Shown one piece after another: positions 16,925-62,470 of a stretch of 64,000 nucleotides of DNA. Every line of letters starts with the position of its first letter. The first letter of the stretch is position 1. The DNA lies in assembly GCA_017538365.1 (NCBI GenBank), contig JAFYIZ010000028.1:52962-116961 (forward strand). The letters are read 5' to 3'. Both the position numbers and the translations under genes were made by a program. The notes under the pieces were generated by a model. The model made no database searches. It was not told the origin of the DNA and saw nothing but the letters and a program-made list of their open reading frames with translations. Source of the DNA: a bacterium (GTDB taxonomy: Bacteria; UBP6; UBA1177).

Positions 16925-17000
16925 TTTTGAAAAAAATTCAGAATATTCGGTTTATGCGTATAATAAGTCGTTTTTTTGTTTGTTAAATTGAGGTCAAATC

Positions 17001-45414: not shown

Positions 45415-45417
45415 TTT

Positions 45418-46005: not shown

Positions 46006-46195
46006 AATTGTCCTCATTTTTAAAAATGCTCCCAAAATGCCGCAGAATTATAATGATTTCTCTAAAAAGAGCAAAAGAAACGCGATTTTTTTAAATTCGG
46101 CTGATTTTGCGGCTCTCTGAACTCTTTATTTGACTTAAAAACCGCCGCAAATAAACTTTCCCGTTTTTTGTTTTTATTTAACTTTGGAGGGAAAA

Positions 46196-47317: not shown

Positions 47318-47323
47318 AAATTC

Positions 47324-47386
47324 TGCCGCCGCAGTTATACCGTAATCCCGTGATCACGGCGGCGGCATAAAGAACCGGGATCCCGG
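47324..47386. repeat. GC-rich palindromic intergenic repeat element (locus D): stem tgccgccg/cggcggca enclosing CGTGATCACG, followed by CCGGGATCCCGG
   Basis: Read directly. 8-bp stem at 47324-31/47360-67, perfect 10-nt palindrome at 47349-58, 12-nt palindrome at 47375-86. Shares cores with the repeats at 54457, 56304 and 59926. Confidence 0.7.
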
Positions 47387-47483
47387 TGGCAGCGCGGCGG
47401 CTATAAAAAAATTTGATAAAATTTATTCTTGTTGTTATAAAGCGGCGTTTTTTTTGTTTTTACTTAATTTTTTGGAGTCAGAG

Positions 47484-49094
47484 ATGAAGAAATTTTTCGT
47501 ACTTACGGCTTGTCTTGTTGCCATGATTGCATGCGGAAACGGTCACGACGTGATGATGCAGAAAATGGAAGAGGCTGCTGAAAGAAACAAAGCCTATCAC
47601 GAGGCTGAAGAGGCAAAAAAGAAAGAAAAACCGAAATTCGTAGATGATGAAATCAAAGAAGAGCTCCCTGCGATCGTAGACGCGGCTGCAAAAGGCAACC
47701 TTGCGGCTGTAAAAGCTGAAATCAGCAAGGGAACTCTTGTCGATACTAAGGACGGACGCAGCAGAACGGCTCTTTACATGGCTGCTTCTGAAGGTAAAAA
47801 AGATGTTGCAGACTACCTCATCGAAGAAGGTGCAAACGTCAACACGAAGCGCGATGACGGCGACACTCCGCTTATGGCTGCTGCAAGAAAAGGCGACAAG
47901 GAGATCGTTGAGGCACTTATAAATGCGAAAGCCGATATTGCTCAGGCAGACAATTTCGGCAGAACTCCGCTTATGATGGCTGCTTCCAGCGGTTCGAAAG
48001 AGCTTGTTGACTATATGCTTGCAAACGGTGCAGACCTCAATGCAACTGACAAATACGAGCTTTCGGCTCTTATTTTCGCGATGAAGGCTCACAAGATGGA
48101 TCTTGCGAAATATCTGCTCAGCAAAGGCGCGAAGGTATGGAAAGCGAAACCTCTCGTAATCAAGGAAAAACCCCTTGTCCTCAAGATCGAAGGCAAAGTT
48201 CAGCCGGGAATGGAAGAAGTTATCGAAAATCTTGACAAGAAAGATGTTCATCTCCGCCAGAAAACCGAGCTTTTCTACGCAGTTGAAACGGGCGATCTCG
48301 ACCTTGTCAAACTTCTTGTACAGAAAGGATCTCCGGTTCTCGTAGACGATGTCGAGCAGAGCAGGGAAACGATAATTTATGAATTCGGCGGAGGCAAGGA
48401 AGAAGAACGCGATATGCTTTTCCAGAGAAAGATCACGAGAACTTCTTACGACCGCGACCAGAAAAACCTTCTTCACTACGCTGCTGAAGGCGGATATGTC
48501 GATATCATGAAATTCCTCATTTCCAAAGGCGCAAGACTTGAAGAGACCGACGGCGAAAACGTCAGAGGTCCGCTTTTCTACGTCGTAGCTCAGGAAGTCG
48601 ACCCGAAAGATCCGGGCAAAGAGGCGAGACTCGTTGCAACGGCTGATTACATCATCGAAGAAGGCAAAAAGACCTGGACGAAGAGAGTCAGACTTACCAA
48701 AAAAGAACTCGACAAGATGAGAGAGAAAGAAAAAGCTAAAAACTGGTGGGAAAAGAACCCGTTCGATACCGAATGGAAAGATGTCACCGCTCCGAAAGTC
48801 GACATTGAAGAATACGATTACGAAGGCTGGCATGTTCTTGCTCTCGCTGCAAAATACGGTCACACTGACATCGTTAAACTTCTCATAAACAAAGGCGCTA
48901 ACATCAACCACAAAGAGAGAAAAATGGGTAACACCGCGCTTATTTACTCGAGAGTCGGCAAATTCAAAGAGATGGAAAAATTCCTTCTTGAACACTGTGC
49001 GAAAGAGGGAATCAACTTCGATCACGAAGAGCTTGCAAAACAGGGCTGGAAATGCGTTGATGGAAAAGAAGTTTTCGAAAAGCCTGCCGAATAA
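47484..49094 (+). CDS. Ankyrin-repeat lipoprotein
   Basis: MKKFFVLTACLVAMIACGNG lipobox. Multiple ANK repeats (DGRSRTALYMAASEGKKDVADYLIEEGANVNTKRDDGDTPLMAAARKGDKEIVEALINAKADI...). Confidence 0.65.
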   Translation: MKKFFVLTACLVAMIACGNGHDVMMQKMEEAAERNKAYHEAEEAKKKEKPKFVDDEIKEELPAIVDAAAKGNLAAVKAEISKGTLVDTKDGRSRTALYMAASEGKKDVADYLIEEGANVNTKRDDGDTPLMAAARKGDKEIVEALINAKADIAQADNFGRTPLMMAASSGSKELVDYMLANGADLNATDKYELSALIFAMKAHKMDLAKYLLSKGAKVWKAKPLVIKEKPLVLKIEGKVQPGMEEVIENLDKKDVHLRQKTELFYAVETGDLDLVKLLVQKGSPVLVDDVEQSRETIIYEFGGGKEEERDMLFQRKITRTSYDRDQKNLLHYAAEGGYVDIMKFLISKGARLEETDGENVRGPLFYVVAQEVDPKDPGKEARLVATADYIIEEGKKTWTKRVRLTKKELDKMREKEKAKNWWEKNPFDTEWKDVTAPKVDIEEYDYEGWHVLALAAKYGHTDIVKLLINKGANINHKERKMGNTALIYSRVGKFKEMEKFLLEHCAKEGINFDHEELAKQGWKCVDGKEVFEKPAE

Positions 49095-49136
49095 TTCTTA
49101 AAATTCTTAAATTTTTTCAATAAATTGAGGTATTCA

Positions 49137-50183
49137 ATGAATAAAATCTTTTTGATTCTTTTTGCTCTTTTGATGATGGGGTCATGCGGTGGAGACGCTC
49201 CGGAAGCTGATGCTGCACAAGGTTCTCTTGGCGGAATCTGCTATCCGAACAAGACCTGCGATGACGGTCTGGAGTGTTCTGAAGATGGTAATATTTGCGT
49301 CAAAAAAGATTCGAACGGTGATATTGACAATCCGACAGATCCTGCAAATAACGATTCGGATGCCGATTCCGGTGATTCGGAGAATTCATCAGACAACGAT
49401 TCTTCTGATTCTGTTTCCGACAATGATCCGGCTGAAAATGAGGCGGGATGCGGCAACGGAGTAAAGGAAGCCGGCGAAGTTTGCGAAAAAGGGGAATATG
49501 TAACCTGTTCAGAGGTTAATAGCGAATATTCTGCTTCGAATTTTGCAACCTGCAACGACTACTGCAACGGTTGGAATACCGCCAATTGTGAAAATTCTCA
49601 AGAAGGCGCTCAGCCGCTTGCAAGTTTTCCGGCAAGAACGCATGAACTAACCTATCTTTACAACGGCTTGACTGCGTTTGAAGAAATGGCAAATCAGGAA
49701 GACGAGCTCTGGAAGTCAGCTCTTTTCAACGCTTCGGTAACTATGAGCGGCGAAACTTATTCCATTCCGAATCCTCTGGCTAATGTTCACTGGATTGCGG
49801 CTTATTACGATTCTGATGTCCTCTCTTTCTACCAGAATTCGTACGCATGTGACGATTCAATGAACTGCCAATATGCAACTCCTGCTGTTATGTTCGGAGC
49901 CGCTTTGTCAGCTCTGAAGGCAGGAAAAGAACTTTCTATCGGCATTTCCGATGAAAATCAGGTAAATATGCTCATAGAAGATGTCATGACAAATTCGGAA
50001 CAGGACTGCGTAATGCTTGTCGGTTATGGCACTTTGAAAGTCGATTCGATCAACATTTCGTCAGGATCTGCCGGTAATTTCAAATTCACAACTTCAAAGA
50101 TCGGTTTGTATCTGCCGGCTGCAACACCTGAAGGCGATGTTACGAATGAACTTGAAAATGCGGGGTTCACAATATGCAAATAA
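49137..50183 (+). CDS. Cys-rich acidic lipoprotein, hypothetical
   Basis: MNKIFLILFALLMMGSCGGDAPE. D/S-rich acidic stretch. Multiple Cys pairs. Confidence 0.5.
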   Translation: MNKIFLILFALLMMGSCGGDAPEADAAQGSLGGICYPNKTCDDGLECSEDGNICVKKDSNGDIDNPTDPANNDSDADSGDSENSSDNDSSDSVSDNDPAENEAGCGNGVKEAGEVCEKGEYVTCSEVNSEYSASNFATCNDYCNGWNTANCENSQEGAQPLASFPARTHELTYLYNGLTAFEEMANQEDELWKSALFNASVTMSGETYSIPNPLANVHWIAAYYDSDVLSFYQNSYACDDSMNCQYATPAVMFGAALSALKAGKELSIGISDENQVNMLIEDVMTNSEQDCVMLVGYGTLKVDSINISSGSAGNFKFTTSKIGLYLPAATPEGDVTNELENAGFTICK

Positions 50184-51448
50184 AAACTAAAATCTCAATA
50201 ATTACGGCAATTTCTGTTTGTTTGTTCTTTGCTGTTTCTTGCGGCAGCTCTTCGAAAGAAGAACCGAAAAATGACACCGATACTGAAACAACTGATGCAG
50301 ATGAAACGGACAATAGCGGGGATGAGAACTACAGTGCCGGCGTTTCTTCAATAAAATTTACGATTCCTGAAGAATCTTCGTTGGTTGCCGAGTCTTCCGG
50401 TCATTTGGCGTTTCCTGATGTTGTCAAACTCCAAAACGGAAAGCTGATGACTGTTTTCAGAAGCGGCAAGGATCATGCTGAAAAAAGCGGTTCTATAATC
50501 GTGGCTTTTTCCAAAGACGGAGTAGAGTGGGATGATTCCGATTATTTGATGAACGACAGCACAATCGATGACCGCGACCCGTCAATCACCGTTTTTTCGG
50601 ACGGAAGAGTCGGAATGAACTGGTTCAAATACCGTTATGCCGATGATCATAATGAGCCTTGGGTTCATCATTTGTTTTTTGCGGTTTCCGATAAAAGCGG
50701 GCTTAATTTCAGCGAACCGGTTCAGGTTGACCCCGGCATTTTCGACTATTCGGAAACTGCGGTTTTGGATGAAAACGGAGTTTGGCTTGACGAAAAAGGA
50801 GAGGAAATTACTGTCGCGGCTTCTTCGAGTTCCGCAATAGAACATGAAGGAAAAATAATAATTCCGGGTTATTTCGGCGGTGCACTGAACTGGAGTTCGA
50901 TGGGATCAACGCCGAAAACGAGAGTCGTTCTTTTTGAAAGTGCTGACGGCGGAGCAACTTGGACACCGAATAAAGTCGAAGCCGAAATTGACGACAAAAT
51001 TTGGCTCAGTGAACCGGCACTGCTCAAAGTTACTGAAAAACGCTGGCTTTTACATGTCAGAACTGCAAAAGGTGCAAGCCCGAGCAACAAAGGCGATCTC
51101 ATGCAGAGCATTTCGGAAGACGGCGGCAAAACCTGGTCTCCATATGAAAGTCTTGGTTTTGTAGCTCATGCACCGGAACTCCTGAAACTTAACAACGGCG
51201 TGATCGTAAGTTCTTTCCGCTGGCTCGACTATGTCGGATCAAATCCGAAAAGCGAATCCGTTTCGATGATTTATTCGCTTGACGGCGGCGCAACATGGTC
51301 GGATGTTATCGAAATTCTGGACTGCGGGGCGGCGGAATGCGGTTATCCCGGCATGGTTGAACTTGACGGAAATAAAATCCTCGTCGTTTATTACACACCG
51401 GGCGGAAAGACGATTGAATCTAAAATCATAACTTTTGAAGCGGAATAA
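50174..51448 (+). CDS. BNR/Asp-box repeat glycosyl hydrolase (sialidase-like) lipoprotein
   Basis: Lipobox FAVSCGSS. Asp-box repeats SADGGATWTP, SEDGGKTWSP, SLDGGATWSD. Confidence 0.6.
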   Translation: MQIKTKISIITAISVCLFFAVSCGSSSKEEPKNDTDTETTDADETDNSGDENYSAGVSSIKFTIPEESSLVAESSGHLAFPDVVKLQNGKLMTVFRSGKDHAEKSGSIIVAFSKDGVEWDDSDYLMNDSTIDDRDPSITVFSDGRVGMNWFKYRYADDHNEPWVHHLFFAVSDKSGLNFSEPVQVDPGIFDYSETAVLDENGVWLDEKGEEITVAASSSSAIEHEGKIIIPGYFGGALNWSSMGSTPKTRVVLFESADGGATWTPNKVEAEIDDKIWLSEPALLKVTEKRWLLHVRTAKGASPSNKGDLMQSISEDGGKTWSPYESLGFVAHAPELLKLNNGVIVSSFRWLDYVGSNPKSESVSMIYSLDGGATWSDVIEILDCGAAECGYPGMVELDGNKILVVYYTPGGKTIESKIITFEAE

Positions 51449-51532
51449 TTGCTTTATAATTTTTTGTAATTATAATAATTTGCTTATGTTTTTTGGATGT
51501 TTTTGGCAGTTTAATATTTTACGGAGTTAAAA

Positions 51533-52393
51533 ATGAAAAAAATTTTGTTGGTCATGCTTGTTTGTTCGCTCCTTTTCGCTCTTTCCTGCGGCAGCAGCGA
51601 TAAAAAGGACGGAAAAACCTCTCTTATCGAAAAGAAGATCGAAATGATCAAAAACGACAATCAGGGCAAACCTGTAAAACAGATGGTCGAAATCCTCAAA
51701 CTCAAGGCTGAGAACGAGGAATTCGTAAAGAAATCAGTTATGAAGATTTATTCCGAAATCACCGGAAAAGTTGCTCCTCATCAGCTTGCACAGTTCAAGG
51801 AATCGCCGAACAGAAACGTTCAGGTTCCGGGAAATGTTTCAAGAATCCACATCAAAAGCGACTATGTTTCAAGTGCGAACGTAATGCTTTTCCTCATGAA
51901 AGGAAAAGAAGCTGTCGTTTGGGACGAGCTTGAGTTCAACACCGAGAAAAAATACGATTTCGCTCCGGGCAACTACGATTTCGTCATGATCGTTGACAGA
52001 CCGGACAACAGCAATGTTTATGTTTTCAAGTATGACCGCAGCTTCAAAGGCGGCGAGCTTTACTTGGGCGAATTCAAAATCGTCGGCAAATACAGCAACT
52101 CCGGCGAATGTGCAACTGGTTACATCCGTGACGACGCAGAAACCTGCATCGCTCCGTCATTCAAAATTTTCGACAACTGTGACGCCGGAACACACCTCGT
52201 AGAGCATCTCTGCTGCGAAGAAGGATTCAACTTCATCATGGACGGTCAGTGCTCGAGATACAGCGACACCGTTGAAAACGTTATCTGCCCGGCTGGTTAC
52301 CACGAAGGCGGAAAGGGAAGATGCTGCCCGACCGGAATGCTCTTCATCGACGACAAATGCCAGGTTCCGCCAAAAGAAGAACCGGCAAAATAA
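51533..52393 (+). CDS. Lipoprotein with a Cys-rich C-terminus, hypothetical
   Basis: MKKILLVMLVCSLLFALSCGSSDKK. C-terminal CATGY...CIAP...CDAGTHLVEHLCCEEG...CPAGYHEGGKGRCCPTG. Confidence 0.5.
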   Translation: MKKILLVMLVCSLLFALSCGSSDKKDGKTSLIEKKIEMIKNDNQGKPVKQMVEILKLKAENEEFVKKSVMKIYSEITGKVAPHQLAQFKESPNRNVQVPGNVSRIHIKSDYVSSANVMLFLMKGKEAVVWDELEFNTEKKYDFAPGNYDFVMIVDRPDNSNVYVFKYDRSFKGGELYLGEFKIVGKYSNSGECATGYIRDDAETCIAPSFKIFDNCDAGTHLVEHLCCEEGFNFIMDGQCSRYSDTVENVICPAGYHEGGKGRCCPTGMLFIDDKCQVPPKEEPAK

Positions 52394-52407
52394 CCCGATT
52401 TTCTATA

Positions 52408-52746
52408 ATGGATCAAAAACTTCTTCCCGAAATAAAACTTTTTAAAGAGCGGTTTAGCGAATTTCTAGAAAGTGAAGCTGCACTCAACGGAAAACTGCTT
52501 GTCAGAGAGCTTATTTACCGCTTTGCCATGGTGCAGTTCAGGGATACGCACGGTTTTGAGGCTGGAAAAGTTGAATACATCGCCAAAGTTTTTGACGAAG
52601 CGAAGGCTGAATTCGGGAAGATTTTTGAGGAGTTCGCTGTTTTCTGTATTGAAAACGGTTTCGACGAGACTTTTATAAACTCAGAGATGAAGAAATGGCT
52701 GACCGAAATTTCGGAAAAAATGGAACTCGAAAAGGCGGAAGGCTGA
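52408..52746 (+). CDS. Hypothetical cytoplasmic protein (112 aa)
   Basis: ORF. Start chosen at the first ATG after the upstream stop. No motif. Confidence 0.35.
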   Translation: MDQKLLPEIKLFKERFSEFLESEAALNGKLLVRELIYRFAMVQFRDTHGFEAGKVEYIAKVFDEAKAEFGKIFEEFAVFCIENGFDETFINSEMKKWLTEISEKMELEKAEG

Positions 52747-53774
52747 TTCTTTTCATTCTGCTTTCGGTGCTTTTTCACGGGCTTGTTTTTTTAATAAAAA
52801 TCGACCTTTCAACCGATAAAAGCGAAGAGGAGAGTCTCGTTTCGATAAAGTATCTTGATGATTCTGCGGCAAAACTTCCGGCAACTCCGGTTCTTCCGCC
52901 GAAACCTGAAAAGAAAAAGGAAAATTCGAAACCGAAAGGGCAGGTCGTCGATATTGCAAAGCCGAAAATCGAGAAAAAACCTTCAGAAAGCCGTTTTCTT
53001 TCGGAATTTGACAGTTCTGTCGAGAAAGAAACTGTTTCCTCTCAGCACGATGACAACATAAATGTCCGCGGCGAAAGTCTGAAAAGGCAGCTTGCCAAAA
53101 AGGCGGAAAACATGAAAGTCGAATCTGACGAAAGCATGATGATGCCGATGCAGTCGGCTGATGCGCAGAAACCTGAGCAGGCAAAGGCCGAAAAAATCAA
53201 AAAAGGGGAACTTAAAGGTTTCGAAGGCGATGACGGCAACTATGCGGCTGGAAAAGATAAGGAAATTGCCGGAAAGCTTGATGCTAAAGACGACAAGGAT
53301 GAAGAAGGGCGCGTGAATGTCGGCGGAAGGTGGATTCCGAAAAAACTTCTTCCTTATCTCAATGGTTCCGACGCTGTGCTGATGAGTCCGTCGAATGATT
53401 TTCTGGAAGATGTCAGAAAGGGGAACGAGACTTATCTCAACACTCAGAAATTTGCTTATGCGGCCTACTTCAACAAGATGAAACAGGCGATCTCACGAAA
53501 CTGGAGTCCGGGGACGGCGATAATCGTGAACGATCCTACCGGCAGAATGTATGGCAGAAAGGACAGATTCACGAAGCTCCAGGTTTTTATTTCGGCGCAG
53601 GGAAAGCTCGTCAAAGCAAAGGTTATCACGAGCTGCGGAGTCGATTTTCTTGACCGCGAGGCGATAAACGCATTCAAAATGGCGGCTCCTTTCGCTCCAC
53701 CGCCCGAAATCCTTCTCAACGAAGACAAACAGCTTGAAATACGTTTCGGATTTATGGTGACAACACATGAATAA
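52695..53774 (+). CDS. TonB-family protein (transmembrane anchor, Pro/Lys-rich linker, TonB C-terminal domain)
   Basis: Transmembrane RLILFILLSVLFHGLVFLI. PVLPPKPEKKKENSKPK. C-terminal domain ...KLQVFISAQGKLVKAKVITSCGVDFLDREAINAFKMAAPFAPPP. Start uncertain: 52-nt overlap with the upstream ORF. Confidence 0.5.
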   Translation: MADRNFGKNGTRKGGRLILFILLSVLFHGLVFLIKIDLSTDKSEEESLVSIKYLDDSAAKLPATPVLPPKPEKKKENSKPKGQVVDIAKPKIEKKPSESRFLSEFDSSVEKETVSSQHDDNINVRGESLKRQLAKKAENMKVESDESMMMPMQSADAQKPEQAKAEKIKKGELKGFEGDDGNYAAGKDKEIAGKLDAKDDKDEEGRVNVGGRWIPKKLLPYLNGSDAVLMSPSNDFLEDVRKGNETYLNTQKFAYAAYFNKMKQAISRNWSPGTAIIVNDPTGRMYGRKDRFTKLQVFISAQGKLVKAKVITSCGVDFLDREAINAFKMAAPFAPPPEILLNEDKQLEIRFGFMVTTHE

Positions 53775-54456
53775 TTCAAAAAAAGCGGTCGTTCTTTTCA
53801 GCGGCGGCCTTGATTCTACGACGGTTTTAGTTTATGCGCTGAAACAGGGTTATGATGTTTATCCGCTCACTTTTTCCTACGGTCAGAGGCACGCGATCGA
53901 AATAAAACAGTCGGAAAGAACGCTTGAAAAATACGGACTTCTGGACAGACAGACGATATTTTCGATTGATCTCACACCGTTTGTAAACTGCTCGCTTATC
54001 AACAAAAATCTGGAAGTTCCAGAATTTGCCGAAAACAGGATTCCTTCGACTTACGTGCCGTCGAGAAACCTTATTTTTCTTTCGGTAGCATCGGGTTTTG
54101 CCGAAACTCTGGGCGCGGAAAAGATTTTCATCGGTGTCAATTCAGTCGATTATTCGGGTTATCCCGACTGCCGTCCTGAATTTGTCGAAGCATTCAATAA
54201 AACGATCGCAGTCGGAACTAAGCAGGGTGTCGAAAGTGGAATAAAAGTTGAAGCACCGATTCTCAACATGTCAAAAAAGGAGATAGTCGAGCTCGGAATG
54301 TCGCTTGGAGTCGACTATTCGCTCACACACAGCTGCTACAACCCGACTCCCGACGGGCTTTCATGCGGAGTCTGCGACAGCTGCCGGCTCAGGCTTGAAG
54401 GTTTCAGACAGGCAGGATTCACTGATCCGCTGAAGTATGCGGCGCGCAAAAAATAA
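53767..54456 (+). CDS. queC: 7-cyano-7-deazaguanine synthase
   Basis: KAVVLFSGGLDSTT (PP-loop). C-terminal zinc Cys CYNPTPDGLSCGVCDSC. Confidence 0.9.
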   Translation: MNNSKKAVVLFSGGLDSTTVLVYALKQGYDVYPLTFSYGQRHAIEIKQSERTLEKYGLLDRQTIFSIDLTPFVNCSLINKNLEVPEFAENRIPSTYVPSRNLIFLSVASGFAETLGAEKIFIGVNSVDYSGYPDCRPEFVEAFNKTIAVGTKQGVESGIKVEAPILNMSKKEIVELGMSLGVDYSLTHSCYNPTPDGLSCGVCDSCRLRLEGFRQAGFTDPLKYAARKK

Positions 54457-54514
54457 CGGGATCACGAGATTCCGGTTTGCCGCCTTCGAGATTACTGGAT
54501 CACGAGATTCCGGG
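54457..54514. repeat. Intergenic repeat (locus A): direct duplication of GGATCACGAGATTCCGG
   Basis: 17-mer at 54458-54474 and 54497-54513. Shares cores CGGGATCACG / GATTCCGG with loci at 56304, 59926 and 47324. Confidence 0.7.
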
Positions 54515-54607
54515 ATTCCGAATAGTGTTTGTGGCGGCTGAAATTTTTGATTTTTTTCCCAAAAAAGCTAAAATTCCTGCCGTTGATTTTTTTTCTAGGA
54601 GGAAAAA

Positions 54608-55708
54608 ATGAAGAAAATCTGGTTGGTTTTAACGATTGTTTGTGTTTTCGTGCTTTCAAGCTGCGGTGGAGACAGCAAAACCCCGACAAAAGTTGAGGAA
54701 GAAACTGAAAACATGCCGGAGGAAGCTGAGGATGTGCAACCAGCTCCCAGTCCAAATGATGGAGCTCCTGAAGAACCTACTAACAGCAATGCGGAGTCTG
54801 ACTCCGGAATTCCCGGCTACACTGTTGAATTCAACATTATTGATATTGACATGATGGGACAGGGACAGTCAATGGCGATTGGCTACTTCATGAAGACTGC
54901 ACGTGAAGATCTGGAAGAAGATGAAGTTGAGGATGTTACGCTCGACACCTGTGTTATGGGTGAATCTTCACCGCGCGTTCCGAAATGTTTAAGCAAAGCC
55001 GACTGTGCTCCTGAGCAGGAATGTGTGCCGGAGACAGACAGCAACGGTAATGTGATCGAAAACAGTGAGCACTGCGAAACTCCGAACAGAGCTTCTCTTG
55101 ATGTAGGACCGGTTGAGATCGCAGGTTTTAACGGAGGTCCTTATCCGTTTGCTTACGAGCCTGGAGATCAGGTTTACAAGATGAATGGAACCGGTGACGG
55201 CAGTATTGACCGTTCTCTTATTGCGTATGGTGTCGACTATACGATTCGCGGCGAAAATATGATTCCAGACGATCTTAATTCGCTTTCAGCAACATTCAGA
55301 ATGCCTCCAATGCTGCAGCTTATCGAACCTGCTGCGACTGAAGGGGGAACATTCGGTGCTGCAATCGCGATCGATAACTCAAAACCGCTCAAATTTGTCT
55401 GGGAAGGCAACGGCGGACAGGGTTATATCGATATCACGATCACGGCGGCTCAGTCTCTTGCCAATACGGTTTCTGTAACATGCAAAGTTATTGACGACGG
55501 CGAATTTACAGTTCCGGAAGAGTTCGCTTCACAGCTCGTTTTCGGCGGCGGCGGTGACGGAATGATGGATCAGATGCTTGCAATGATGAATATGATAATT
55601 TTCGACCGTCATACTGAATCGCCGATTACCGGTGACGGCATTTCTGTCGGCAGAGTTTCGTCGGAACAGCTTATCATGGTTAATGTTCTTCCGACAGGAT
55701 CCAATTAA
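54608..55708 (+). CDS. Hypothetical lipoprotein
   Basis: MKKIWLVLTIVCVFVLSSCGGDSK. Acidic N-terminal region. No recognisable domain. Confidence 0.45.
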   Translation: MKKIWLVLTIVCVFVLSSCGGDSKTPTKVEEETENMPEEAEDVQPAPSPNDGAPEEPTNSNAESDSGIPGYTVEFNIIDIDMMGQGQSMAIGYFMKTAREDLEEDEVEDVTLDTCVMGESSPRVPKCLSKADCAPEQECVPETDSNGNVIENSEHCETPNRASLDVGPVEIAGFNGGPYPFAYEPGDQVYKMNGTGDGSIDRSLIAYGVDYTIRGENMIPDDLNSLSATFRMPPMLQLIEPAATEGGTFGAAIAIDNSKPLKFVWEGNGGQGYIDITITAAQSLANTVSVTCKVIDDGEFTVPEEFASQLVFGGGGDGMMDQMLAMMNMIIFDRHTESPITGDGISVGRVSSEQLIMVNVLPTGSN

Positions 55709-55739
55709 TCTGTAACTAACTTAGCCGCAAGGCAAATTT

Positions 55740-56303
55740 ATGAAAATCATCCGCGTCAATAAAGATTTGATTCTCAAAGAGTTGGAACTTTCTGACGCCG
55801 AACATATCTTCAAATCAATCGATTCACAGCGCGAATATCTTGGGAAATGGCTTCCTTTCGTTGAATTTACCAAAACAGTCAAAGATTCGCTTGACTATGT
55901 CAATTCGGTCGTCACAATGCCTGAAGAATGCAAAGAGTGGCAGTTCTCTGTTTTCTGCGGCGACGATTTTGCAGGGCTTGCAGGATTCAAAGGAACCGAC
56001 AGGCTCAACCGAAAAAGCGAAATAGGCTACTGGCTAAAAGAGGAGTTCCAAGGGCGCGGCATAATGACCGAGTCAGTCCGAGCGCTCATAAATTTCGGCT
56101 TTTCAGAACTCAACCTCAACAGAATCCAGATAAAATGCGCTCCAGACAACATCAAAAGCAACAGAATTCCGCAAAGACTGGGCTTCACTCTTGAAGGAAT
56201 CGAGCGCGACAGCGAATTCGTGAGAGAAGGTGTCTTTCGTGACGCCAATGTGTGGAGTCTTTTGAAAAGAGATTCGGAATCCAGGGATTACGAGAACCAG
56301 TGA
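55740..56303 (+). CDS. GNAT N-acetyltransferase (RimJ/RimL-like)
   Basis: 187 aa. GYWLKEEFQGRGIMTESVRALINFGF, the acetyl-CoA binding motif Q/RxxGxG/A. Confidence 0.65.
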   Translation: MKIIRVNKDLILKELELSDAEHIFKSIDSQREYLGKWLPFVEFTKTVKDSLDYVNSVVTMPEECKEWQFSVFCGDDFAGLAGFKGTDRLNRKSEIGYWLKEEFQGRGIMTESVRALINFGFSELNLNRIQIKCAPDNIKSNRIPQRLGFTLEGIERDSEFVREGVFRDANVWSLLKRDSESRDYENQ

Positions 56304-56377
56304 TCCCGATTGCGGCGCGTCGAGATCCGGTTGCGGCGCTTTTCGGGATTCCGTGATTCCGGTATTCCGAGATCTCG
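56304..56377. repeat. Intergenic palindromic repeat block (locus B) filling the convergent gap between the GNAT gene and lipA
   Basis: Read directly: GTGATCCCG, GCGGCGCGTCGAGATCCGGTTGCGGCGC, CGGGATTCCGTGATTCCGGTATTCCGAGATCTCG. Same cores as loci A, C and D. Confidence 0.7.
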
Positions 56378-57250
56378 TTATTTTGTTGCGCCGCTGATCA
56401 TATTCTGGTGAATTTCTTTTGCGTTGAAGGAGCTTCTGACAAATCTGCCCGAATAAACTTCTTTGAATCCGATGGACAAACCATAGTCGCGCAGTGCGTC
56501 AAATTCAGCCTGAGTGTAGTCTTTTTCAACAGGGATGTGCTGCAGCGACGGGCGGAAATACTGCCCGATGGTCATTATGTCGCATCCTACATCGCGCAGA
56601 TCGCGCATCAGAGCATGGACTTCATCAATATTTTCTCCGACTCCGAGCATTATTCCCGATTTCGTGATAAAACCTTTGCGTTTCATGTAGCAGAGAACGT
56701 CAAGCGAGCGTTTGTAATCAGCCTGCGGGCGCACTTTCGAGTATAAAGATGGGATTGTTTCGACATTGTGGTTGAAAACATCTATCGGCGAATCAGCAAC
56801 GATATCGAGATTTTCCTTTATTCCGAGGAAATCTGGGGTCAGGACTTCGACCAAGGTTTCAGGTGATAACTCTTTGACTTTTTTAACAGTTTCGGCGAAG
56901 TGCGCCGCTCCGCAGTCGGGAAGGTCGTCTCTTGTTACCGAGGTTATTACGGTATAAAGCAAGCCCAGATCTTTTACGGCAAGCGCAAGGTTCATCGGTT
57001 CGTTCGGATCGGGAAGGGGGATGTTTTCATTGTGGACGATGTTGCAGAAGCGGCAGTTGCGGGTGCAGCTGTTTCCCAGAATCAGGAATGTCGCCGTTCT
57101 TTTCTTAAAGCAGTCGCCTATATTCGGGCAGTGCGCCGATTCGCAGACCGAATGAAGGTGGTGCAGACGCAGAATCTGCTTCATTTCGGCAACGAAAGGA
57201 GACTTGAAAGTCGATTTTTTGAGCATTTCCTCAGCCATAATCAGCCTCAT
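56378..57250 (-). CDS. lipA: Lipoyl synthase
   Basis: CESAHCPNIGDCF, FLILGNSCTRNCRFCN (radical SAM CxxxCxxC). Start chosen at MRLIMAEEM. The track ORF extends to 57340 and overlaps rlmN. Confidence 0.85.
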   Translation of the reverse strand: MRLIMAEEMLKKSTFKSPFVAEMKQILRLHHLHSVCESAHCPNIGDCFKKRTATFLILGNSCTRNCRFCNIVHNENIPLPDPNEPMNLALAVKDLGLLYTVITSVTRDDLPDCGAAHFAETVKKVKELSPETLVEVLTPDFLGIKENLDIVADSPIDVFNHNVETIPSLYSKVRPQADYKRSLDVLCYMKRKGFITKSGIMLGVGENIDEVHALMRDLRDVGCDIMTIGQYFRPSLQHIPVEKDYTQAEFDALRDYGLSIGFKEVYSGRFVRSSFNAKEIHQNMISGATK

Positions 57251-57302
57251 TGAACATTCATAAAACGCGGGATTTAAGCCTTTGAAACGGCGCTTGTCAA
57301 GG

Positions 57303-58322
57303 TTAATTTTTGACTCTTCCGAGTTGTCCGCAGGCTGCAAGTTTGTCGCTGCCGCGCGATTTCCTTATGAGTGCGGTTACGTTTTTGGCAATCAGAATAT
57401 TCTGGAAGTCGATGATTTTTTTCATCGGTGTCGGTTCGAAAGCGGCTCCGTCAAAGGTGTTGAAGGGGATGAGATTGACTTTTGCATCGTATCTTTTCGC
57501 GATTTTTGCGAGTTTTTCGGCATCTTCCGGAGTGTCATTGAAATTTTTGAGCATAACATACTCTAGGACGACCATTTTTCGTGAAATCGGATAGGAATCT
57601 ATTGCCTTTAGCAGCGCCGAAAGCGGATATTTTTTATTTATCGGCATGATTTTACTGCGTTTTTCATCGGTAACTGCATGAAGGGAAACGGCGAGGTTGA
57701 CTTTCGTTTTTTCACCGAGTTCTACGATTTTATCGGCAACGCCTGAAGTCGAAACGGTGATTTTTCTATTTGAAAAGTTGAAGCAGAAATCATCCATTAA
57801 AATATCTATTGCGTCAAGCAGGTTTTCAAAGTTTAAAAGCGGCTCTCCCATTCCCATGAAAACGAGATTTGTGATTTTTTTCCCGCTTTTTTCAGCTTCG
57901 ATCTGTGCAGACAAAACCTGACCAGTGATTTCGGAAACTGTGAGATTCCGCTTGAAACCGAGGCTTCCCGTGCGGCAGAAAGCGCAGTGAAGAGGGCACC
58001 CAGCCTGGGTCGAAACACAGAGGGTGCAGCGCGTCTCTTCAGGGATTATGACCGCTTCGACAGCGTTTCCGTCAAATAGCCCGAAAGCTAATTTCTGCGT
58101 GCCGTCGGACGATGTGAAAACTTCTTCCGGTACCATCGGCGTGATTGAGAAAAGTCCGGCAAGTTTAGCGCGGTCGTCCTTGCTGATGTTGCTCATTTCA
58201 TCGAACGAAAAAACTCTTTTCTGATAGATCCACTGGGTTATCTGGGTTGCTTTGAACTTCGGAAAACCGTTTTCTAGAAGAAATCCTTCGAGTTTTTTTC
58301 TTGTTAAATCAAATATTTCCAT
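57303..58322 (-). CDS. rlmN: 23S rRNA (adenine2503-C2)-methyltransferase RlmN
   Basis: 339 aa. CVSTQAGCPLHCAFCRTG, GMGEPLLN, C-terminal ACGQL. Confidence 0.9.
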   Translation of the reverse strand: MEIFDLTRKKLEGFLLENGFPKFKATQITQWIYQKRVFSFDEMSNISKDDRAKLAGLFSITPMVPEEVFTSSDGTQKLAFGLFDGNAVEAVIIPEETRCTLCVSTQAGCPLHCAFCRTGSLGFKRNLTVSEITGQVLSAQIEAEKSGKKITNLVFMGMGEPLLNFENLLDAIDILMDDFCFNFSNRKITVSTSGVADKIVELGEKTKVNLAVSLHAVTDEKRSKIMPINKKYPLSALLKAIDSYPISRKMVVLEYVMLKNFNDTPEDAEKLAKIAKRYDAKVNLIPFNTFDGAAFEPTPMKKIIDFQNILIAKNVTALIRKSRGSDKLAACGQLGRVKN

Positions 58323-58324
58323 TT

Positions 58325-59191
58325 TTACCAGCCGAAAAAGAATGAAAGCATTGAATTTATGATTTCAGTCGGAAGCAGGAACATGACGAGGCCCCCGAAA
58401 GCTAAGAACGGACCGAAATAAATTGCGTGTTCGACATCTTTTTCCTCTTTTGAATTGAGGTCTTCAGCTGAAATGTTGCCGGCGATGCGTTTTTTGCCGA
58501 ATATTAGTTTTGCCGCGAGATAAAAAATTATTCCGCCGAGCGATGCGATAAGCAGGATGAACGGTATCATGACCGGCCCAGTGAACGCGCCGATTGCAGC
58601 TAAAATCCAGACATCGCCCAGACCCATGCCGATTTTTTTAGTAACGAGGTAGAAAATGAGGATTGCGAGCAGAAGAAATCCTGCGCCGACGCCTATTCCG
58701 ATGAGGGATTGCTGCCAGCTGAAAGTCGGTTCGAAGAAGCTCCAAAGAATACCCATGAAGATCGGCGGGATTATCACTTTCGAATAAACGAACTGCGTTC
58801 TGTAGTCGATTGCCGCGGTGACGACAAGTGCCGAAATGAAGTAAAGCGGGAGTATCAGACGCGGATAAAAACCGAATTTAAGGAATGCAAAAAGGTATAA
58901 AAAGGCGTTCAGAAGCTCGATTACAGGATAGATAAGTGAGATTTTTTCACCGCAGCCCGAGCATTTTCCGCGCAGGAAAATCCAGCTGAAGACGGGAATA
59001 TTTTCATACCATGTTATTTTATGGTTGCATTTCGTGCAGGAACTCGGCGGAAAAACGATGCTTTTGCCGAGCGGAATGCGGTAGATGCAGACATTGAGAA
59101 AACTGCCGAAAAGAAGCCCGTAAATAAAGACGAAAACGGCTGAAAAAGTCGCGAAACGCGGTGAATTGAAAAGTACGAAAAACTCTTCCAT
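58325..59191 (-). CDS. Prepilin peptidase (A24 family, PilD-like)
   Basis: ATG at 59191 after RBS ggag. MEEFFVLF..., LLFGSFLNVCIYRIPLG, zinc tetracysteine CTKCNHKI...CSGCGEKI. I rejected the 150-aa N-terminal extension in the track ORF. Confidence 0.7.
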   Translation of the reverse strand: MEEFFVLFNSPRFATFSAVFVFIYGLLFGSFLNVCIYRIPLGKSIVFPPSSCTKCNHKITWYENIPVFSWIFLRGKCSGCGEKISLIYPVIELLNAFLYLFAFLKFGFYPRLILPLYFISALVVTAAIDYRTQFVYSKVIIPPIFMGILWSFFEPTFSWQQSLIGIGVGAGFLLLAILIFYLVTKKIGMGLGDVWILAAIGAFTGPVMIPFILLIASLGGIIFYLAAKLIFGKKRIAGNISAEDLNSKEEKDVEHAIYFGPFLAFGGLVMFLLPTEIINSMLSFFFGW

Positions 59192-59355
59192 TTTGCACTC
59201 CAAAATCAACAAAAAACCAGTAATTTTTGACATAACAGAGGAAAAGTCAATCAAATTCGGCACTGCCGCTCGTGATCCCGGCAAGACTTCGGCGGCGCTC
59301 TTGTTTTTCCAATGCTTTTCTTTAAAATCTCGGCAACTTGTTTCGGGAGGACGAA

Positions 59356-59940
59356 ATGAAAATAGTTTTTGCATCCGGAAACCGCGGGAAACTGCGCGAG
59401 GCCGGAGAGATATTTTCGGGTTTTGAGATCGTGCCGATAAGCGCTTTTCCCACTTGGAATGCACCTGTTGAAAACGGTTCAACTTTTCTGCAGAATGCGG
59501 TGATAAAGGCTGAAGCTGCTGCTGCGGCGGCTGAAGGAGAGATTGTTCTTGCTGACGATTCAGGCCTGGTTGTTCCTGCTTTAAACGGTGCCCCAGGCAT
59601 TTTTTCGGCCCGTTTTTCTGCGGAAGGGACCGATGCGGCAAACAGAAAAAAACTTCTTGCCGAACTTTCCGGAATTAATGACAGAAGTGCATACTTCCTC
59701 TGCACGGCGGTTCTTATTTTTCCGGACAAAACTGTGATTGCGGCAGAGGGAAGATGTTACGGTAAAATAATTGAAACCGAGCGTGGAAACAACGGTTTCG
59801 GCTACGACCCGGTTTTTGTGCCCGACGGCTATGAAAAGACTTTGGCGGAACTTTCGGAAGAAGAGAAAAATTCTATCAGCCACCGCGGAAAAGCCTTTCG
59901 AAAATTGATCGGCGCCGCTGATCTTCACGAGATCTCGTGA
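59356..59940 (+). CDS. rdgB: dITP/XTP pyrophosphatase (RdgB/Ham1)
   Basis: MKIVFASGNRGKLREAGEIF, FGYDPVFVPDGYEKTLAEL, ISHRGKAF. Confidence 0.85.
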   Translation: MKIVFASGNRGKLREAGEIFSGFEIVPISAFPTWNAPVENGSTFLQNAVIKAEAAAAAAEGEIVLADDSGLVVPALNGAPGIFSARFSAEGTDAANRKKLLAELSGINDRSAYFLCTAVLIFPDKTVIAAEGRCYGKIIETERGNNGFGYDPVFVPDGYEKTLAELSEEEKNSISHRGKAFRKLIGAADLHEIS

Positions 59941-60019
59941 TCTCGGAATCCCGTGATACCGAAGCGGCGCAACCCTTGCGGGATCACGTAATCCCGGAAT
60001 CTCGGAATCCCGAAGCGCC
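59926..60019. repeat. Intergenic palindromic repeat block (locus C), overlapping the rdgB stop codon
   Basis: CACGAGATCTCGTG palindrome (59926-59939), then TCTCGGAATCCCGTGAT, GCGGCGCAACCCTTGCGGGATCACG, TAATCCCGGAATCTCGGAATCCCGAAGCGCCGCC. Same cores as loci A, B and D. Confidence 0.7.
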
Positions 60020-60092
60020 GCCCACGATTTTTTTTGACTTTTGAAGGCTCTTCAATATAAAGGCGCGTTATTTTTTTGTTTTATTTCTATTT

Positions 60093-60845
60093 TTGGAGGA
60101 AATTATGGCTTTGAAGCTTAGAGGCGCAAGAAAAGCTAAGAAAAAAGAGCTTGAAACGGCGGCAAATATCGTTGAAAATGACGCTTTTCAGGAGCAGGGG
60201 AAAAAGGTTGTTCTCGAACATCCTTACTTTATTTTCGGTTGTGTTGCAGCGATCGTTGTTGTTGTTATTGTCGCAATGCTTATTTCGACTGCTGTAAAAT
60301 CGGCATCAGATGCAAAATCGCTTGAATATGCCGCAGCGACGGAACTTCTTGACAAGGCTGACGATGACTCGTCGGAAAACGCTAAAGCAACTTACGAGCA
60401 GGCTCTTGCCGCTTTCGACAAAGTTATAAAAAATCAGTCCGGTTCGATGAATGCGGCTGCTTCAATGGTATTTTCAGGTCGTATTTACAAAGAAAGCATG
60501 AACAACTGCGACAAGGCGGTTGATTTCTTCAAACAGGCACGCACTAGCGGAAAACTCAGCACCGATGTCCGCTTTGTAGCTTACGAAGGCGAGGCAATGT
60601 GCTACTTCGATAAAGGCGATTACGAAAAAGCTGTTGATCTCTGGAAGGAATGGCTCAATCAGAAAACCGATATCTATAAGGATTACGCGCTTTACTACAC
60701 CGGCATGACCTATGAAAAACTCGGAAAAGCCGATGAAGCGGCTGTTTATTACAACAGATTGAAAGACGAATATCCGAAGAGCCTTCTTCTTGCAAAAATC
60801 ACGGGCAAAGTTACAACAAAAGAGCCTGAAAAAGCACAGAATTAA
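60093..60845 (+). CDS. Membrane-anchored TPR-repeat protein (YfgM-like)
   Basis: 250 aa. Single transmembrane helix FIFGCVAAIVVVVIVAMLI, followed by TPR-like repeats. Stop overlaps the next start (taATG). Confidence 0.4.
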   Translation: MEEIMALKLRGARKAKKKELETAANIVENDAFQEQGKKVVLEHPYFIFGCVAAIVVVVIVAMLISTAVKSASDAKSLEYAAATELLDKADDDSSENAKATYEQALAAFDKVIKNQSGSMNAAASMVFSGRIYKESMNNCDKAVDFFKQARTSGKLSTDVRFVAYEGEAMCYFDKGDYEKAVDLWKEWLNQKTDIYKDYALYYTGMTYEKLGKADEAAVYYNRLKDEYPKSLLLAKITGKVTTKEPEKAQN

Positions 60846-62059
60846 TGTTTCCTCGCAAATTTTTCCCAATTTTTTTCGTTTTTTTATTTTCTCTTCCGAT
60901 TTCTGCCGAATTTGTCGGATCTGTCGAATTTGACGAAAATGCAGGAAAAGCCCCTGTTTTTGTTAAAAAAGGTGAACCGCATTTAGCTATTGAATGGGCG
61001 ATTCCGCTCAAAAAAAATCAGGTTCAGGTAAACAGGCGCGAAGAAGCCGGAGTGACTCTTTTCGGAGAGGATATTCTTGTCGCGTCACGTTCAGGCAGTC
61101 TTCATCTTTTCGGAAAAAACGGCGAACTCAAAGTGACGGCGGTTTTTGAAGGTGAATGCACGGTGGCGCCTGTCGCAGTTGATGAAACACACGCACTTGT
61201 TTCGGTTTCAAATTCGGTTTTAATGATGGAGCTTGTTACCGGAAAAAAGGGGAAAAAGTACAGCTGGAAAGTACTTTGGAATATCGCGGGAAAGGCGACA
61301 GTCGCGGCGCAGCCTTTTGTCTATGAAAACAAACTTGTCCTCATTCAGTTCCACGACAGTGTGATTTATGTTGTAGACAAGGAGAGCGGTGAACTTAAAA
61401 ATATGTACAGCGACTATGAAAACAGCGAAGAACTATCCGTTATACGCCTTGCGCAGCCGATATTCGTCGACGGAAAGATCGTTTTCGGTTTTTCCGACGG
61501 CACAATAACCTTTTTCATGCTGCGTGATGAAGGCAAAGTCGATCTGATTCCTTACTACAAATTCAAAACGGCGAGCTCGATGAAAAGGTTCGAAAAACGT
61601 GACTTTTTCGATCTTCTTTCTTTTGTCCAGATCGAAGATTCAATTCTTTTTTCGGGCGGGGAGTACGGCGGCGTTATCGTTGACGGAAAGCCTTCTAAAC
61701 TTGAAAACATGGAAGATCTCCAGCTTTTCAAATATGAAAACGGTTTTGCCGGTTTCGGCCGCCGCGGAATTTTTCTTTTCGATGAGAACGGAAAATTCAA
61801 AACGCAGCCGTTCAAGTCGATGAATTATGTTACCAATCTTGTTCAGGGAAACGGTTTTACAGTTGCGATGACATCAGGCGAAGGACCGATGCTGGGCGAT
61901 ACTGATGCCTTTATTTATCTGCTTTCCCCGGATTTTGCGAAGATACATTACTCCATGATGATACCGAACGGAGTTTCAAGTAATGCGGTGTGTGACGGGC
62001 GCGCAGTGTACTTTATTTCGGACATGGGAGTACTTTATAAGTTAAAAGTGTTAAATTAA
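60845..62059 (+). CDS. Secreted beta-propeller-like protein (possible BamB/YfgL-like)
   Basis: Signal peptide FFPIFFVFLFSLPISAEF. Repetitive beta-strand-rich sequence. Position after the YfgM-like gene mirrors E. coli yfgM-bamB. Assignment is weak. Confidence 0.3.
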   Translation: MFPRKFFPIFFVFLFSLPISAEFVGSVEFDENAGKAPVFVKKGEPHLAIEWAIPLKKNQVQVNRREEAGVTLFGEDILVASRSGSLHLFGKNGELKVTAVFEGECTVAPVAVDETHALVSVSNSVLMMELVTGKKGKKYSWKVLWNIAGKATVAAQPFVYENKLVLIQFHDSVIYVVDKESGELKNMYSDYENSEELSVIRLAQPIFVDGKIVFGFSDGTITFFMLRDEGKVDLIPYYKFKTASSMKRFEKRDFFDLLSFVQIEDSILFSGGEYGGVIVDGKPSKLENMEDLQLFKYENGFAGFGRRGIFLFDENGKFKTQPFKSMNYVTNLVQGNGFTVAMTSGEGPMLGDTDAFIYLLSPDFAKIHYSMMIPNGVSSNAVCDGRAVYFISDMGVLYKLKVLN

Positions 62060-62140
62060 TGGAAAATTTTCTTGCAATATTAAAGAAAATGATTAGAAAT
62101 GAGCGGCTTTTTGGAGCAAAGACTTTTTATGGAGGAGTGA

Positions 62141-62416
62141 ATGAATAAGTCGAATTTAATTGCTGTTTTTTCTGAAAAAGCAAACCTTTCAAAGAGAAAT
62201 GCGGAACAGTTCGTAAACATTATGATTGATTCAATGATCAAAGCTCTCAAAAACGGCGAGCGCGTTGAAATCAGAGGTTTCGGCAGTTTCGTAGTTCGCA
62301 CTTACGGTGCTTATGAAGGCAGAAATCCCAAGACCGGCGCAACGATAAACGTCGATCAGAAGAAACTTCCTTTCTTCAAGGCTGGAAAAGATCTTCTTTC
62401 CCGCATCAATGACTGA
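62141..62416 (+). CDS. HU/IHF-family DNA-binding protein
   Basis: 91 aa. RVEIRGFGSFVVRTYGAYEGRNPKTGATINVDQKKLPFFKAGKDL (the HU/IHF arm). Confidence 0.8.
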   Translation: MNKSNLIAVFSEKANLSKRNAEQFVNIMIDSMIKALKNGERVEIRGFGSFVVRTYGAYEGRNPKTGATINVDQKKLPFFKAGKDLLSRIND

Positions 62417-62432
62417 TTAACTTCAGTTTTTT

Positions 62433-62454
62433 GCCGCTTCGTGCGGCTTTTTTT
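62433..62454 (+). terminator. Rho-independent terminator after the HU/IHF gene
   Basis: gccgc-ttcgt-gcggc hairpin (62433-62447), followed by a T7 run. Confidence 0.6.
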
Positions 62455-62470
62455 ATTTTTCGGATAACTC

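Follow-up and report, generated by a model that had tools for sequence, protein, structure and literature searches.

Background

REP sequences typically occur in hundreds of copies per genome, and a GTAG-type tetranucleotide beside the palindrome is the feature recognised by RAYT proteins. The REPINs of Pseudomonas are REP doublets that form hairpins and are mobilised by RAYT transposases; the REPIN-RAYT arrangement consists of inverted, conserved REP ends of 16-25 nt together with a single-copy RAYT (a Y1 transposase, PF01797) flanked by repeats. As a class, REP and REPIN elements have been described as extragenic hairpins with conserved ends, in which the spacer is constrained in both length and pairing (PMC3116915). 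Also comparable are the STRR, 7-bp hairpin-forming repeats for which a role in transcript stability has been suggested (PMC2670836), and the multicopy paired sites of Geobacter metallireducens, which are built of four octanucleotides (GTTGCTYN), three 9-mers or five heptamers (PMC2700814).

Here we report an undescribed family of approximately 60-base, hairpin-forming intergenic elements in an uncultured rumen bacterium, found in a contiguous stretch of 64,000 nucleotides that was analysed as a whole (from this point on, the window). The host belongs to the rumen 'UBP6' MAG lineage, a candidate phylum that has no cultured member and no described repeat biology. Relatives, given below by their L numbers, were compared through QueC-anchored loci from rumen MAGs labelled UBP6 (UBA1177, UBA1196), 'uncultured Spirochaetales' or simply 'bacterium'.

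Architecture and inventory of the elements

A full module measures 57-62 nt and comprises, in order, a clamp arm, a leader, four octamers of the form CGNNATNN, a CGA tail and the complementary clamp arm, an unusually clean modular design. The clamp is a 7-10-bp inverted repeat of G and C only, such as GCGCCGC...GCGGCGC or GCCGCC...GGCGGC, and occurs in at least six sequence variants, each perfectly complementary. The leader is 8-11 nt long and often reads xATCTTG (examples are TGATCTTCA, AATCTTGC, AACCCTTG and TTTCTTGT). Within the 8-nt unit C1, G2, A5 and T6 are fixed, giving CGNNATNN in this genome and CGNCGTNA in relatives, and the fourth unit is followed by the tail CGA(A/C/T). The period of 8 was returned both by Tandem Repeats Finder and by an autocorrelation scan. 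More than 15 elements have an interior of 43-48 nt, and the short copies lack exactly 16 nt (D1 of the window and the D element of L011) or 24 nt (E of the window).

Elements were compared after being written in the 8-nt register and in a common orientation. MAFFT leaves the variable-length clamps out of register, and a custom clamp-plus-period scan separates the elements from controls: its period-8 score is 0.5-0.7 for intergenic clamp pairs versus 0.2-0.35 for coding clamp pairs, and it returned no match in 250 kb of DNA from other phyla. About 25 elements, drawn from the window and 10 relatives, share the register, clamp, leader, four units and tail, and the grouping of these clamped, phased, hairpin-forming extragenic modules into one family is well supported. 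The elements of the window are as follows.

D1, 47325..47366, plus strand: short form with two units, beginning 7 nt past the stop codon of the M29 peptidase gene; clamp GCCGCCGC / GCGGCGGC around AGTTATAC CGTAATCC CGTGATCA CG; interior of 26-27 nt, the canonical 43 minus 16
D2, 47359..47401, minus strand: inverted remnant with one unit (CCGGGATCCCGG), sharing the middle clamp arm; third arm GCGGCGGC at 47394-47401; a homologous remnant is present in L017
A1, 54439..54484, minus strand: two units (CGGGATCA CGAGATTC on the plus strand) in an imperfect 5-bp clamp, whose arm GCGGCGCGC encodes the last residues of QueC; holds the first copy of a duplicated 17-mer (54459-54475)
A2, 54479..54538, minus strand: full size, 60 nt; clamp GCCGCC / GGCGGC; read on the minus strand, leader ACAAACACTATT, units CGGAATCC CGGAATCT CGTGATCC AGTAATCT, then CGAA; holds the second 17-mer copy (54497-54513)
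B', 56275..56318, plus strand: degenerate array CGGAATCC AGGGATTA CGAGAACC AGTGATCC CGATT followed by GCGGCGC; overlaps the 3' end of the GNAT gene and its TGA stop (56301-56303); head-to-head with B; absent in L009
B, 56333..56394, minus strand: full size, 62 nt; clamp GCGGCGC / GCGCCGC; read on the minus strand, leader AACAAAATAA, units CGAGATCT CGGAATAC CGGAATCA CGGAATCC, then CGAAAA; the radical-SAM gene (56378-57340, minus strand) shares its last codons with the 5' clamp and leader
E, 59265..59296, minus strand: truncated and degenerate fifth site; 5-bp clamp GCCGC / GCGGC; 22-nt interior with leader AAGTCTTGC and a single unit (CGGGATCA); found next to both -35 boxes in the gap from which the prepilin peptidase gene (pppA) and ham1 diverge
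C1, 59912..59970, plus strand: full size, 59 nt; clamp GCGCCGC / GCGGCGC; leader TGATCTTCA, units CGAGATCT CGTGATCT CGGAATCC CGTGATAC, then CGAA; the TGA stop codon of ham1 (RdgB) at 59938-59940 lies inside the array
C2, 59964..60021, plus strand: full size, 58 nt; shares arm GCGGCGC with C1; leader AACCCTTG, units CGGGATCA CGTAATCC CGGAATCT CGGAATCC, then CGAA and GCGCCGC; on its 3' side come CCACGA-T8 and then the -35 and -10 boxes of the TPR gene promoter

Predicted folding

The unit pattern reads the same as its reverse complement, which allows the interior to pair with itself, whatever the 8-nt register. The earlier note on this DNA had asked for a fold prediction; in single-stranded DNA or RNA the whole module is predicted to form one long, imperfect hairpin with an energy of -19 to -30 kcal/mol, lower than that of shuffles. 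Against shuffles of the whole interior the hairpin energy has a mean z of -1.9, and against shuffling of the N positions alone a mean z of -0.87; N-only shuffles still fold worse, which indicates some pairing beyond what the grammar alone provides. Both strands fold equally well, at -24.5 kcal/mol each, and thus show no G-U signature that would point to selection on RNA. In the C1/C2 pair (59912-60021) the three clamp arms alternate GCGCCGC, GCGGCGC, GCGCCGC, and the two hairpins are therefore mutually exclusive. The layout is attenuator-like, with the T8 run only after the second hairpin; this may be incidental, because the third arm is non-complementary in L137.

Recurrence relative to chance

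The dispersed intergenic family of palindrome-rich repeats proposed in the earlier note is real and lies far above chance in shuffle-based counts. Its starting point, the 17-mer GGATCACGAGATTCCGG, is present in exactly two copies, with a start-to-start spacing of 38 nt rather than the reported 39. When up to three mismatches are allowed the 17-mer matches 7 times in the window versus 0.13 expected, always within the four loci that the note had named, and the sequence cores said to recur at the three other loci were found again there (47324-47386, 56304-56377 and 59926-60019). Two tandem units of CGNRATYN (CGNRATYNCGNRATY) have 19 matches versus 0.71 expected, with 3 in the largest shuffle, and all 19 fall at the four named intergenic sites. 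Three tandem units of CGNNATNN with at most one mismatch have 27 matches in the window versus 0.38 expected; 26 of the 27 lie in the four loci, the remaining one being a mismatched coding match at 51333. Chains of at least two units are confined, in the whole 64 kb, to 47341-58, 54457-520, 56344-77 and 59928-60012. A blind search for all-G/C 6-mer inverted repeats with loops of 15-75 nt returned five places in the 64 kb, four of which are the named loci.

GATC, around which all units were previously said to be built, is not the organising principle, as many units read GATT, GAAT or TAAT. Its enrichment is limited to the elements of this genome. Orthologous elements of relatives are built from CGAAATAT, CGTTATAT, CGNCGTNA or the 9-mer GTCCTTAAG, with no GATC. 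The proposed link to a GATC-targeting Dam-like methylase or restriction system is likewise unsupported and was rejected, GATC standing at 0.78 of expectation in the window and being absent from relatives' elements. The G/C clamps, the 8-nt periodicity and the fixed interior of about 45 nt were overlooked in that earlier reading.

Genomic setting

The sites and their neighbours are given in order along the window.

D: M29 peptidase / ankyrin protein
A: queC / lipoprotein
B: GNAT acetyltransferase / radical SAM, convergent
E: prepilin peptidase / ham1, divergent
C: ham1 / TPR protein

Every copy is intergenic, apart from overlaps limited to the final codons of a gene, and elements start 0-10 nt past a stop codon or overlap it. 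At all four non-convergent sites, 8-13 nt separate the end of the element from the -35 box of the promoter that follows. In both convergent gaps the elements form head-to-head pairs in which each member is sense to its own gene. Orientation is loosely sense-biased overall (about 7/10 in this genome), A1 and A2 being antisense to queC. The earlier description of the repeats as lying 3' of genes and in convergent gaps thus fits most copies; the copy in the divergent, promoter-side gap shows that the family is not confined to the 3' sides of genes.

The last codons of queC and of the GNAT and radical-SAM genes consist of clamp or array sequence. Because element sequence supplies the stop codon or last residues (59938-59940, 56301-56303, 56378-56394 and 54439-54456), the C-termini of the ham1, GNAT, radical-SAM and queC products vary with the presence of the element among relatives, and such altered C-termini and stop codons matter for annotation.

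Distribution is patchy. The five sites of the window fall within 13 kb, and no element was found in its first 47 kb, which contain about 19 intergenic gaps. An extra site of the same genome lies approximately 7.4 kb to the left of the window, where a head-to-head pair occupies the FtsK/ankyrin convergent gap (L185 17412-17530), and no element was found in the 8.4 kb to the right. In total, about 80 kb of this genome were read (the window, L185 and L188), yielding 6 sites and approximately 10 elements. Pfam annotation of the window gave only housekeeping genes, with no transposase, integrase or restriction-modification gene, and no RAYT or HUH gene is among the Pfam-annotated genes of the window and flanks (about 80 kb). 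A connection with a replication origin or terminus was rejected, since GC skew stays positive over the full window and never switches.

Several other features of the window were recorded. A motif common to many intergenic regions consists of TATAAT or TATAAA, 2-4 nt, GCG, T7-9, approximately 10-25 nt and a GGAGG Shine-Dalgarno sequence (8578-8603, 13506-13531, 15420-15440, 16959-16984, 32340-32360, 47436-47461 and 60056-60080), and it is probably the lineage-typical -10 box, start site and U-rich leader. Over the whole window GGCC is observed 44 times versus 145 expected (ratio 0.30), and CTAG (0.45) and GTAC (0.50) are also low; this under-representation suggests restriction-modification pressure. 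Tandem coding repeats of 21 nt and 27 nt at 8773-9158, rich in GAT, GAC and TCx codons, encode an acidic stretch rich in Asp, Ser and Gly, and the ORF that holds them (8703-9557) has no Pfam match. The long gap at 9558-10016 contains minus-strand genes for tRNA-Glu(CTC) (9844-9918) and tRNA-Gln(CTG) (9933-10006).

Relatives and strain-level turnover

Eleven species-level relatives, with QueC proteins 93-96% identical, have the same architecture at orthologous sites with different content. The unit types found in relatives are listed here.

Unit CGNCGTNA: L010, L011, L014, L016, L017
Unit CGAAATAT: L010, L016, L017
Unit CGTTATNN: L010, L014
Unit CGRTATNN: L017
Unit CGTAATNN: L009
9-nt class GTCCTTAAG, with clamps and interior length unchanged: C site of L009, L011, L186

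The site of the truncated E element holds full-size elements in L010 (CGAAATAT units) and L009 (CGTAATNN units). Orthologous sites are empty in L010 at C and in L009 and L007 at A, and orientation at the same site varies, D being inverted in L009 relative to its orthologues and E differing between the window and both L009 and L010. None of these elements was found in L018, a more distant relative with 73% QueC identity. Tandem repeats of other kinds also occur in this material: an intergenic 21-nt unit CGGCCGATCACCGCAAACAGG in 2 copies at L014 83-130, and long 9-nt repeats (xCxGATACA, CTCTGGTGA) at L016 11920-12020 and L018 6738-6836.

Turnover can be followed at close range. A clean 16-nt deletion, suggesting unit slippage, separates L011 from L010 and L014. 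Strain L189, 97.7% identical, has been remodelled at B by a 23-nt indel and different units, while the B element of the window is 100% identical to that of L009 over 60 nt, with flanks 85-92% (about 88%) identical. In the FtsK/ankyrin gap, L185 and L187 hold two 8-mer-class elements and L186 holds the 9-mer class with the same GCCGCCGCC clamp; L186 has 95% ANI and an identical HprK protein, and the alignment breaks at the gene ends of this gap. Such elements are usable as strain-resolving markers in rumen metagenomes and are likely sites of assembly breaks or mis-joins.

Over six homologous element pairs, substitutions number 20/109 at N positions, 5/54 in the leader, 3/106 at the fixed CG/AT positions and 1/84 in the clamps. 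Judged from these sequence comparisons, the position-specific pattern fits purifying selection on the clamps and the CG/AT frame; it could also result if units that vary at N alone undergo conversion or slippage with one another. The eight elements of this genome that were compared are only 52-79% identical pairwise, which gives no hint of a recent burst of transposition. The combination of position-specific conservation with strain turnover makes this a tractable case for the origin, spread and constraint of REP-like hairpins.

Possible roles and origins

We tentatively prefer the reading that these are REP-like, stable 3' stem-loops that would protect or delimit transcripts and that are remodelled chiefly through slippage, as suggested by their placement, by the convergent pairs and by the REP and STRR precedents. 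Modules occupy the space between a stop codon and the next promoter, or lie head-to-head in convergent gaps. They would change when slipped strands add or remove whole units (8, 16 or 24 nt) and, now and then, when the element interior is replaced. Most probably they would work in cis, forming stable stem-loops at the 3' ends of transcripts where, by analogy with what is described for REP and proposed for cyanobacterial STRR, they may shield the mRNA from 3' exonucleases and separate adjacent transcription units. New copies may arise by template switching or gene conversion, or through a dedicated enzyme. Speaking against a role at transcript ends are the looseness of the orientation bias (about 7/10, with A1/A2 antisense and D of L009 inverted) and the divergent-gap site, where no transcript should end; the elements are dispensable, as empty sites in several relatives demonstrate, which also counts against it. 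Further points against it are the equal fold energy of both strands, which shows no sign of selection on the RNA, and the T-run, found 3' of C2 and A2 only. The stem-loop role is put forward with this reserve because orientation is only loosely sense-biased, one site is divergent, the elements are dispensable and the RNA role is itself deduced.

A serious rival, though in our judgement rather unlikely, is that the elements are selfish, non-autonomous REPIN/MITE-like DNA, in which an enzyme encoded elsewhere, perhaps a transposase of the HUH/RAYT type or a recombinase that works on folded single strands, recognises the clamp-plus-array hairpin and copies it into permissive intergenic spots with incidental effects on the host. 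Presence/absence and orientation polymorphism at orthologous sites would be explained in this way, as would the whole exchange of the 8-mer class for the 9-mer class within the same clamp at 95% ANI, where the alignment breaks exactly at the gene ends. Variants are also incongruent with relatedness, B being identical in distant L009 and different in the 97.7% strain L189, and several element classes have common clamps and length, as in REP classes. The definition of a REPIN, conserved ends around a length-constrained, hairpin-capable spacer, points the same way (PMC3116915), and so does the patchy clustering of 5 sites in 13 kb with none in the window's other 47 kb. Set against these observations, about 80 kb of this genome contain no transposase, integrase or HUH gene, the elements have neither a target-site duplication nor a conserved tetranucleotide, such as GTAG, at their flanks, and the 52-79% identity among copies within the genome shows no recent burst. 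Moreover, dead insertions should decay uniformly, whereas clamps and CG/AT positions are kept between orthologous copies.

We consider it unlikely, though still a serious rival, that the interior is a binding array, in which a multimeric DNA- or RNA-binding protein (or, in a variant, a nucleoid protein such as IHF or HU on a cruciform) reads the CG/AT marks in the 8-nt register over four to five registers, and would thereby regulate or insulate adjacent promoters. There are models for such binding: the ribbon-helix-helix proteins MetJ and omega bind 2-5 tandem 8-bp metboxes or 7-bp heptads, contiguous phased units of palindromic pattern beside promoters, and ParG boxes are a further example of this tandem-box mode. 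This parallel bears only on the binding-array reading. Such a protein would suit the strict 8-nt phase, in which only positions 1, 2, 5 and 6 are conserved, as well as the fixed unit number and fixed span. It would also suit the closeness to promoters: at four of four non-convergent sites the element stops 8-13 nt short of a -35 box, and the divergent gap among them has a promoter on either side. The same grammar also recurs in long unclamped arrays of other metagenome bacteria, varying at positions 3, 7 and 8, and the four-octanucleotide multicopy sites of G. metallireducens have been read as global-regulator sites (PMC2700814). Double-strand binding, however, gives no reason for perfectly complementary, covarying G/C clamps, and a single protein register is difficult to square with the 9-nt class, which takes the place of the 8-nt class at one site while its clamps and span stay the same. 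The neighbouring genes have unrelated housekeeping functions and form no common regulon, elements are missing at the same promoters in sister species, and no candidate binding protein was identified.

The unclamped arrays come from a metagenome scan with the three-unit pattern, in which the matches listed were mostly perfect octamer microsatellites from many taxa and only L137 represented the orthologous locus. Among the matches listed are also long, heterogeneous, unclamped arrays of 7-37 units with CGNRATNN grammar (CGGAATCA, CGGAATTA, CGTTATCA and others), as follows.

L110 780-947
L119 482-782
L139 8429-8532
L181 6474-6636
L073 520-628
L077 3542-3620
L128 8795-8881
L066 7895-7952

Their contigs have 42-60% GC, and they lie in short gaps between housekeeping genes (LpxK/SppA, FGGY kinase, apiosidase). 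Variation is mainly at unit positions 3, 7 and 8, though the search pattern fixed position 7. The shared CGNRATNN grammar hints, by its sequence, at a wider unrecognised class of periodic intergenic elements. A different REP-like repeat with 8-nt phase, AATCCCGGGATCCCGAAATCCCGGGATCCCGG...CCAATCCCGAAATCCCGGGATT preceded by TAGGGAATTAATCC, was seen in other organisms (L076, L082, L086, L087, L108 and L111, also L083 and L098). A scan of viral contigs with CGNGATTCCGNGATTCCG gave 25 matches, all simple duplications in unrelated DNA with no clamp architecture. Quite unlikely is the proposal that the 8-nt grammar (CG and AT 4 nt apart, 4-5 registers, a span of about 45 nt and a clamp) is a recognition code for a multimeric nucleic-acid-binding protein or a folded-strand recombinase. 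If that were true, the elements would be written or exchanged by a dedicated system, or would form a genome-wide cis-regulatory layer; should the periodic grammar prove to be read by a protein as a code, or to be made by a dedicated enzyme, it would constitute a new class of bacterial cis element.

That the elements are ordinary intrinsic (Rho-independent) terminators with long repetitive loops is very improbable. Their position just past stop codons, the G/C-rich stem, the CCACGA-T8 after C2 and a T-rich tract after A2 are what a terminator would show, but loops of 43-48 nt are far outside terminator geometry (3-8 nt), for which reason a terminator scan does not call the elements. D, F1, B and the D elements of L010 and L016 are followed by A-runs or mixed sequence, the A-runs being at the D-site elements, there are antisense copies and a divergent-gap copy, and canonical terminators exist elsewhere in the organism, for instance at 62433-62447 followed by T7. 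The canonical terminator reading is thus effectively excluded.

Chance similarity or low-complexity sequence without family relationship, to which the short, A/T/G/C-balanced units and the abundance of similar perfect octamer microsatellites in metagenomes might lend a negligible probability, is effectively excluded by the shuffle controls (19 versus 0.71 and 27 versus 0.38 expected matches), the same modular architecture recurring in about 25 copies from more than 10 genomes and in none of the control DNA.

Comparison with known systems

A search of Rfam with E-values up to 1 over 44000-64000, both strands, matched no family, and a literature search for the unit strings found nothing. A likeness of GGATCAC to the 16S rRNA 3' tail and one of TCGGAATCC to tRNA T-arms were dropped, since relatives with other unit flavours lack them.

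Integron attC sites have R''/R' core sites (RYYYAAC ... GTTRRRY) and belong to promoterless cassettes in one orientation with intI nearby. Identity with attC, the '59-base element', was rejected: there are no GTT cores at the ends, the 59-nt size is coincidental, the neighbours, syntenic genes of housekeeping type, lie on both strands and have promoters of their own, and no integrase was found. The MetJ and omega arrays, unlike the present elements, are regulon-specific operators with no flanking inverted repeats, conserved in sequence and not strain-polymorphic.

Like the STRR of heterocystous cyanobacteria, which also occur between the genes of operons, these are short tandem units, dispersed intergenically and hairpin-capable (PMC2670836). 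Unlike STRR, with units of 7 such as CCCCAGT, they have a period of 8 or 9, a fixed 4-5 units, G/C clamps and a host in another phylum, and their unit pattern is its own reverse complement. Membership in STRR was rejected on the period of 8/9 by autocorrelation and on the host, a rumen UBP6 lineage. The Geobacter sites resemble them in being dispersed and intergenic, with 3-5 tandem units of 7-9 nt, in inverted pairs and species-specific; in contrast to the present elements, their unit sequences differ, their pairs are variably spaced and no G/C clamp encloses them. They have been read as IHF/HU or global-regulator sites, and IS elements insert beside them (PMC2700814).

The earlier label, 'REP/MITE-like', holds for its first half as a neighbourhood. 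The hallmarks of MITEs (terminal inverted repeats with a target-site duplication, more than 100 bp) were not found: filled and empty sites (C in L010, A in L009/L007 and the FtsK/ankyrin gap) differ without duplication, the size is 57-62 nt versus the usual >100 bp and no IS element was seen, so that a MITE was rejected. Nor were the REP/RAYT hallmarks found, namely GTAG and near-identical copies; a GTAG-type tetranucleotide is absent from the flanks of D1, A2, B, C1 and F1, which share no motif. REP-like is nevertheless the right neighbourhood, because the copies lie mostly just past stop codons and in convergent gaps. As in REP and BIME of enterobacteria, including the REP elements of E. coli, the elements are short, extragenic, imperfectly palindromic and hairpin-forming. 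As in REP, BIME and REPIN, they lie after genes and in convergent gaps, single or paired, with arms shared or inverted, fall into lineage-specific sequence classes, and are dispensable and polymorphic between relatives. They differ from REP in size (57-62 nt versus approximately 35 nt), in conserved ends that are just 7-10 nt of pure G/C and not themselves REP palindromes, and in an interior built of four 8-nt or five 9-nt units in phase. Compared with REPINs, the interior is of fixed length (43-48 nt) and pairs, but the ends are only 7-10-nt clamps in at least six variants, and there is no near-identical population of copies, the eight elements having pairwise identities of 0.52-0.79. The concept of REP and REPIN is shared, but without GTAG, long conserved ends or near-identical copies, and the elements are therefore not assigned to a named family; they are set apart from every one of these and placed with the REP-like kind.
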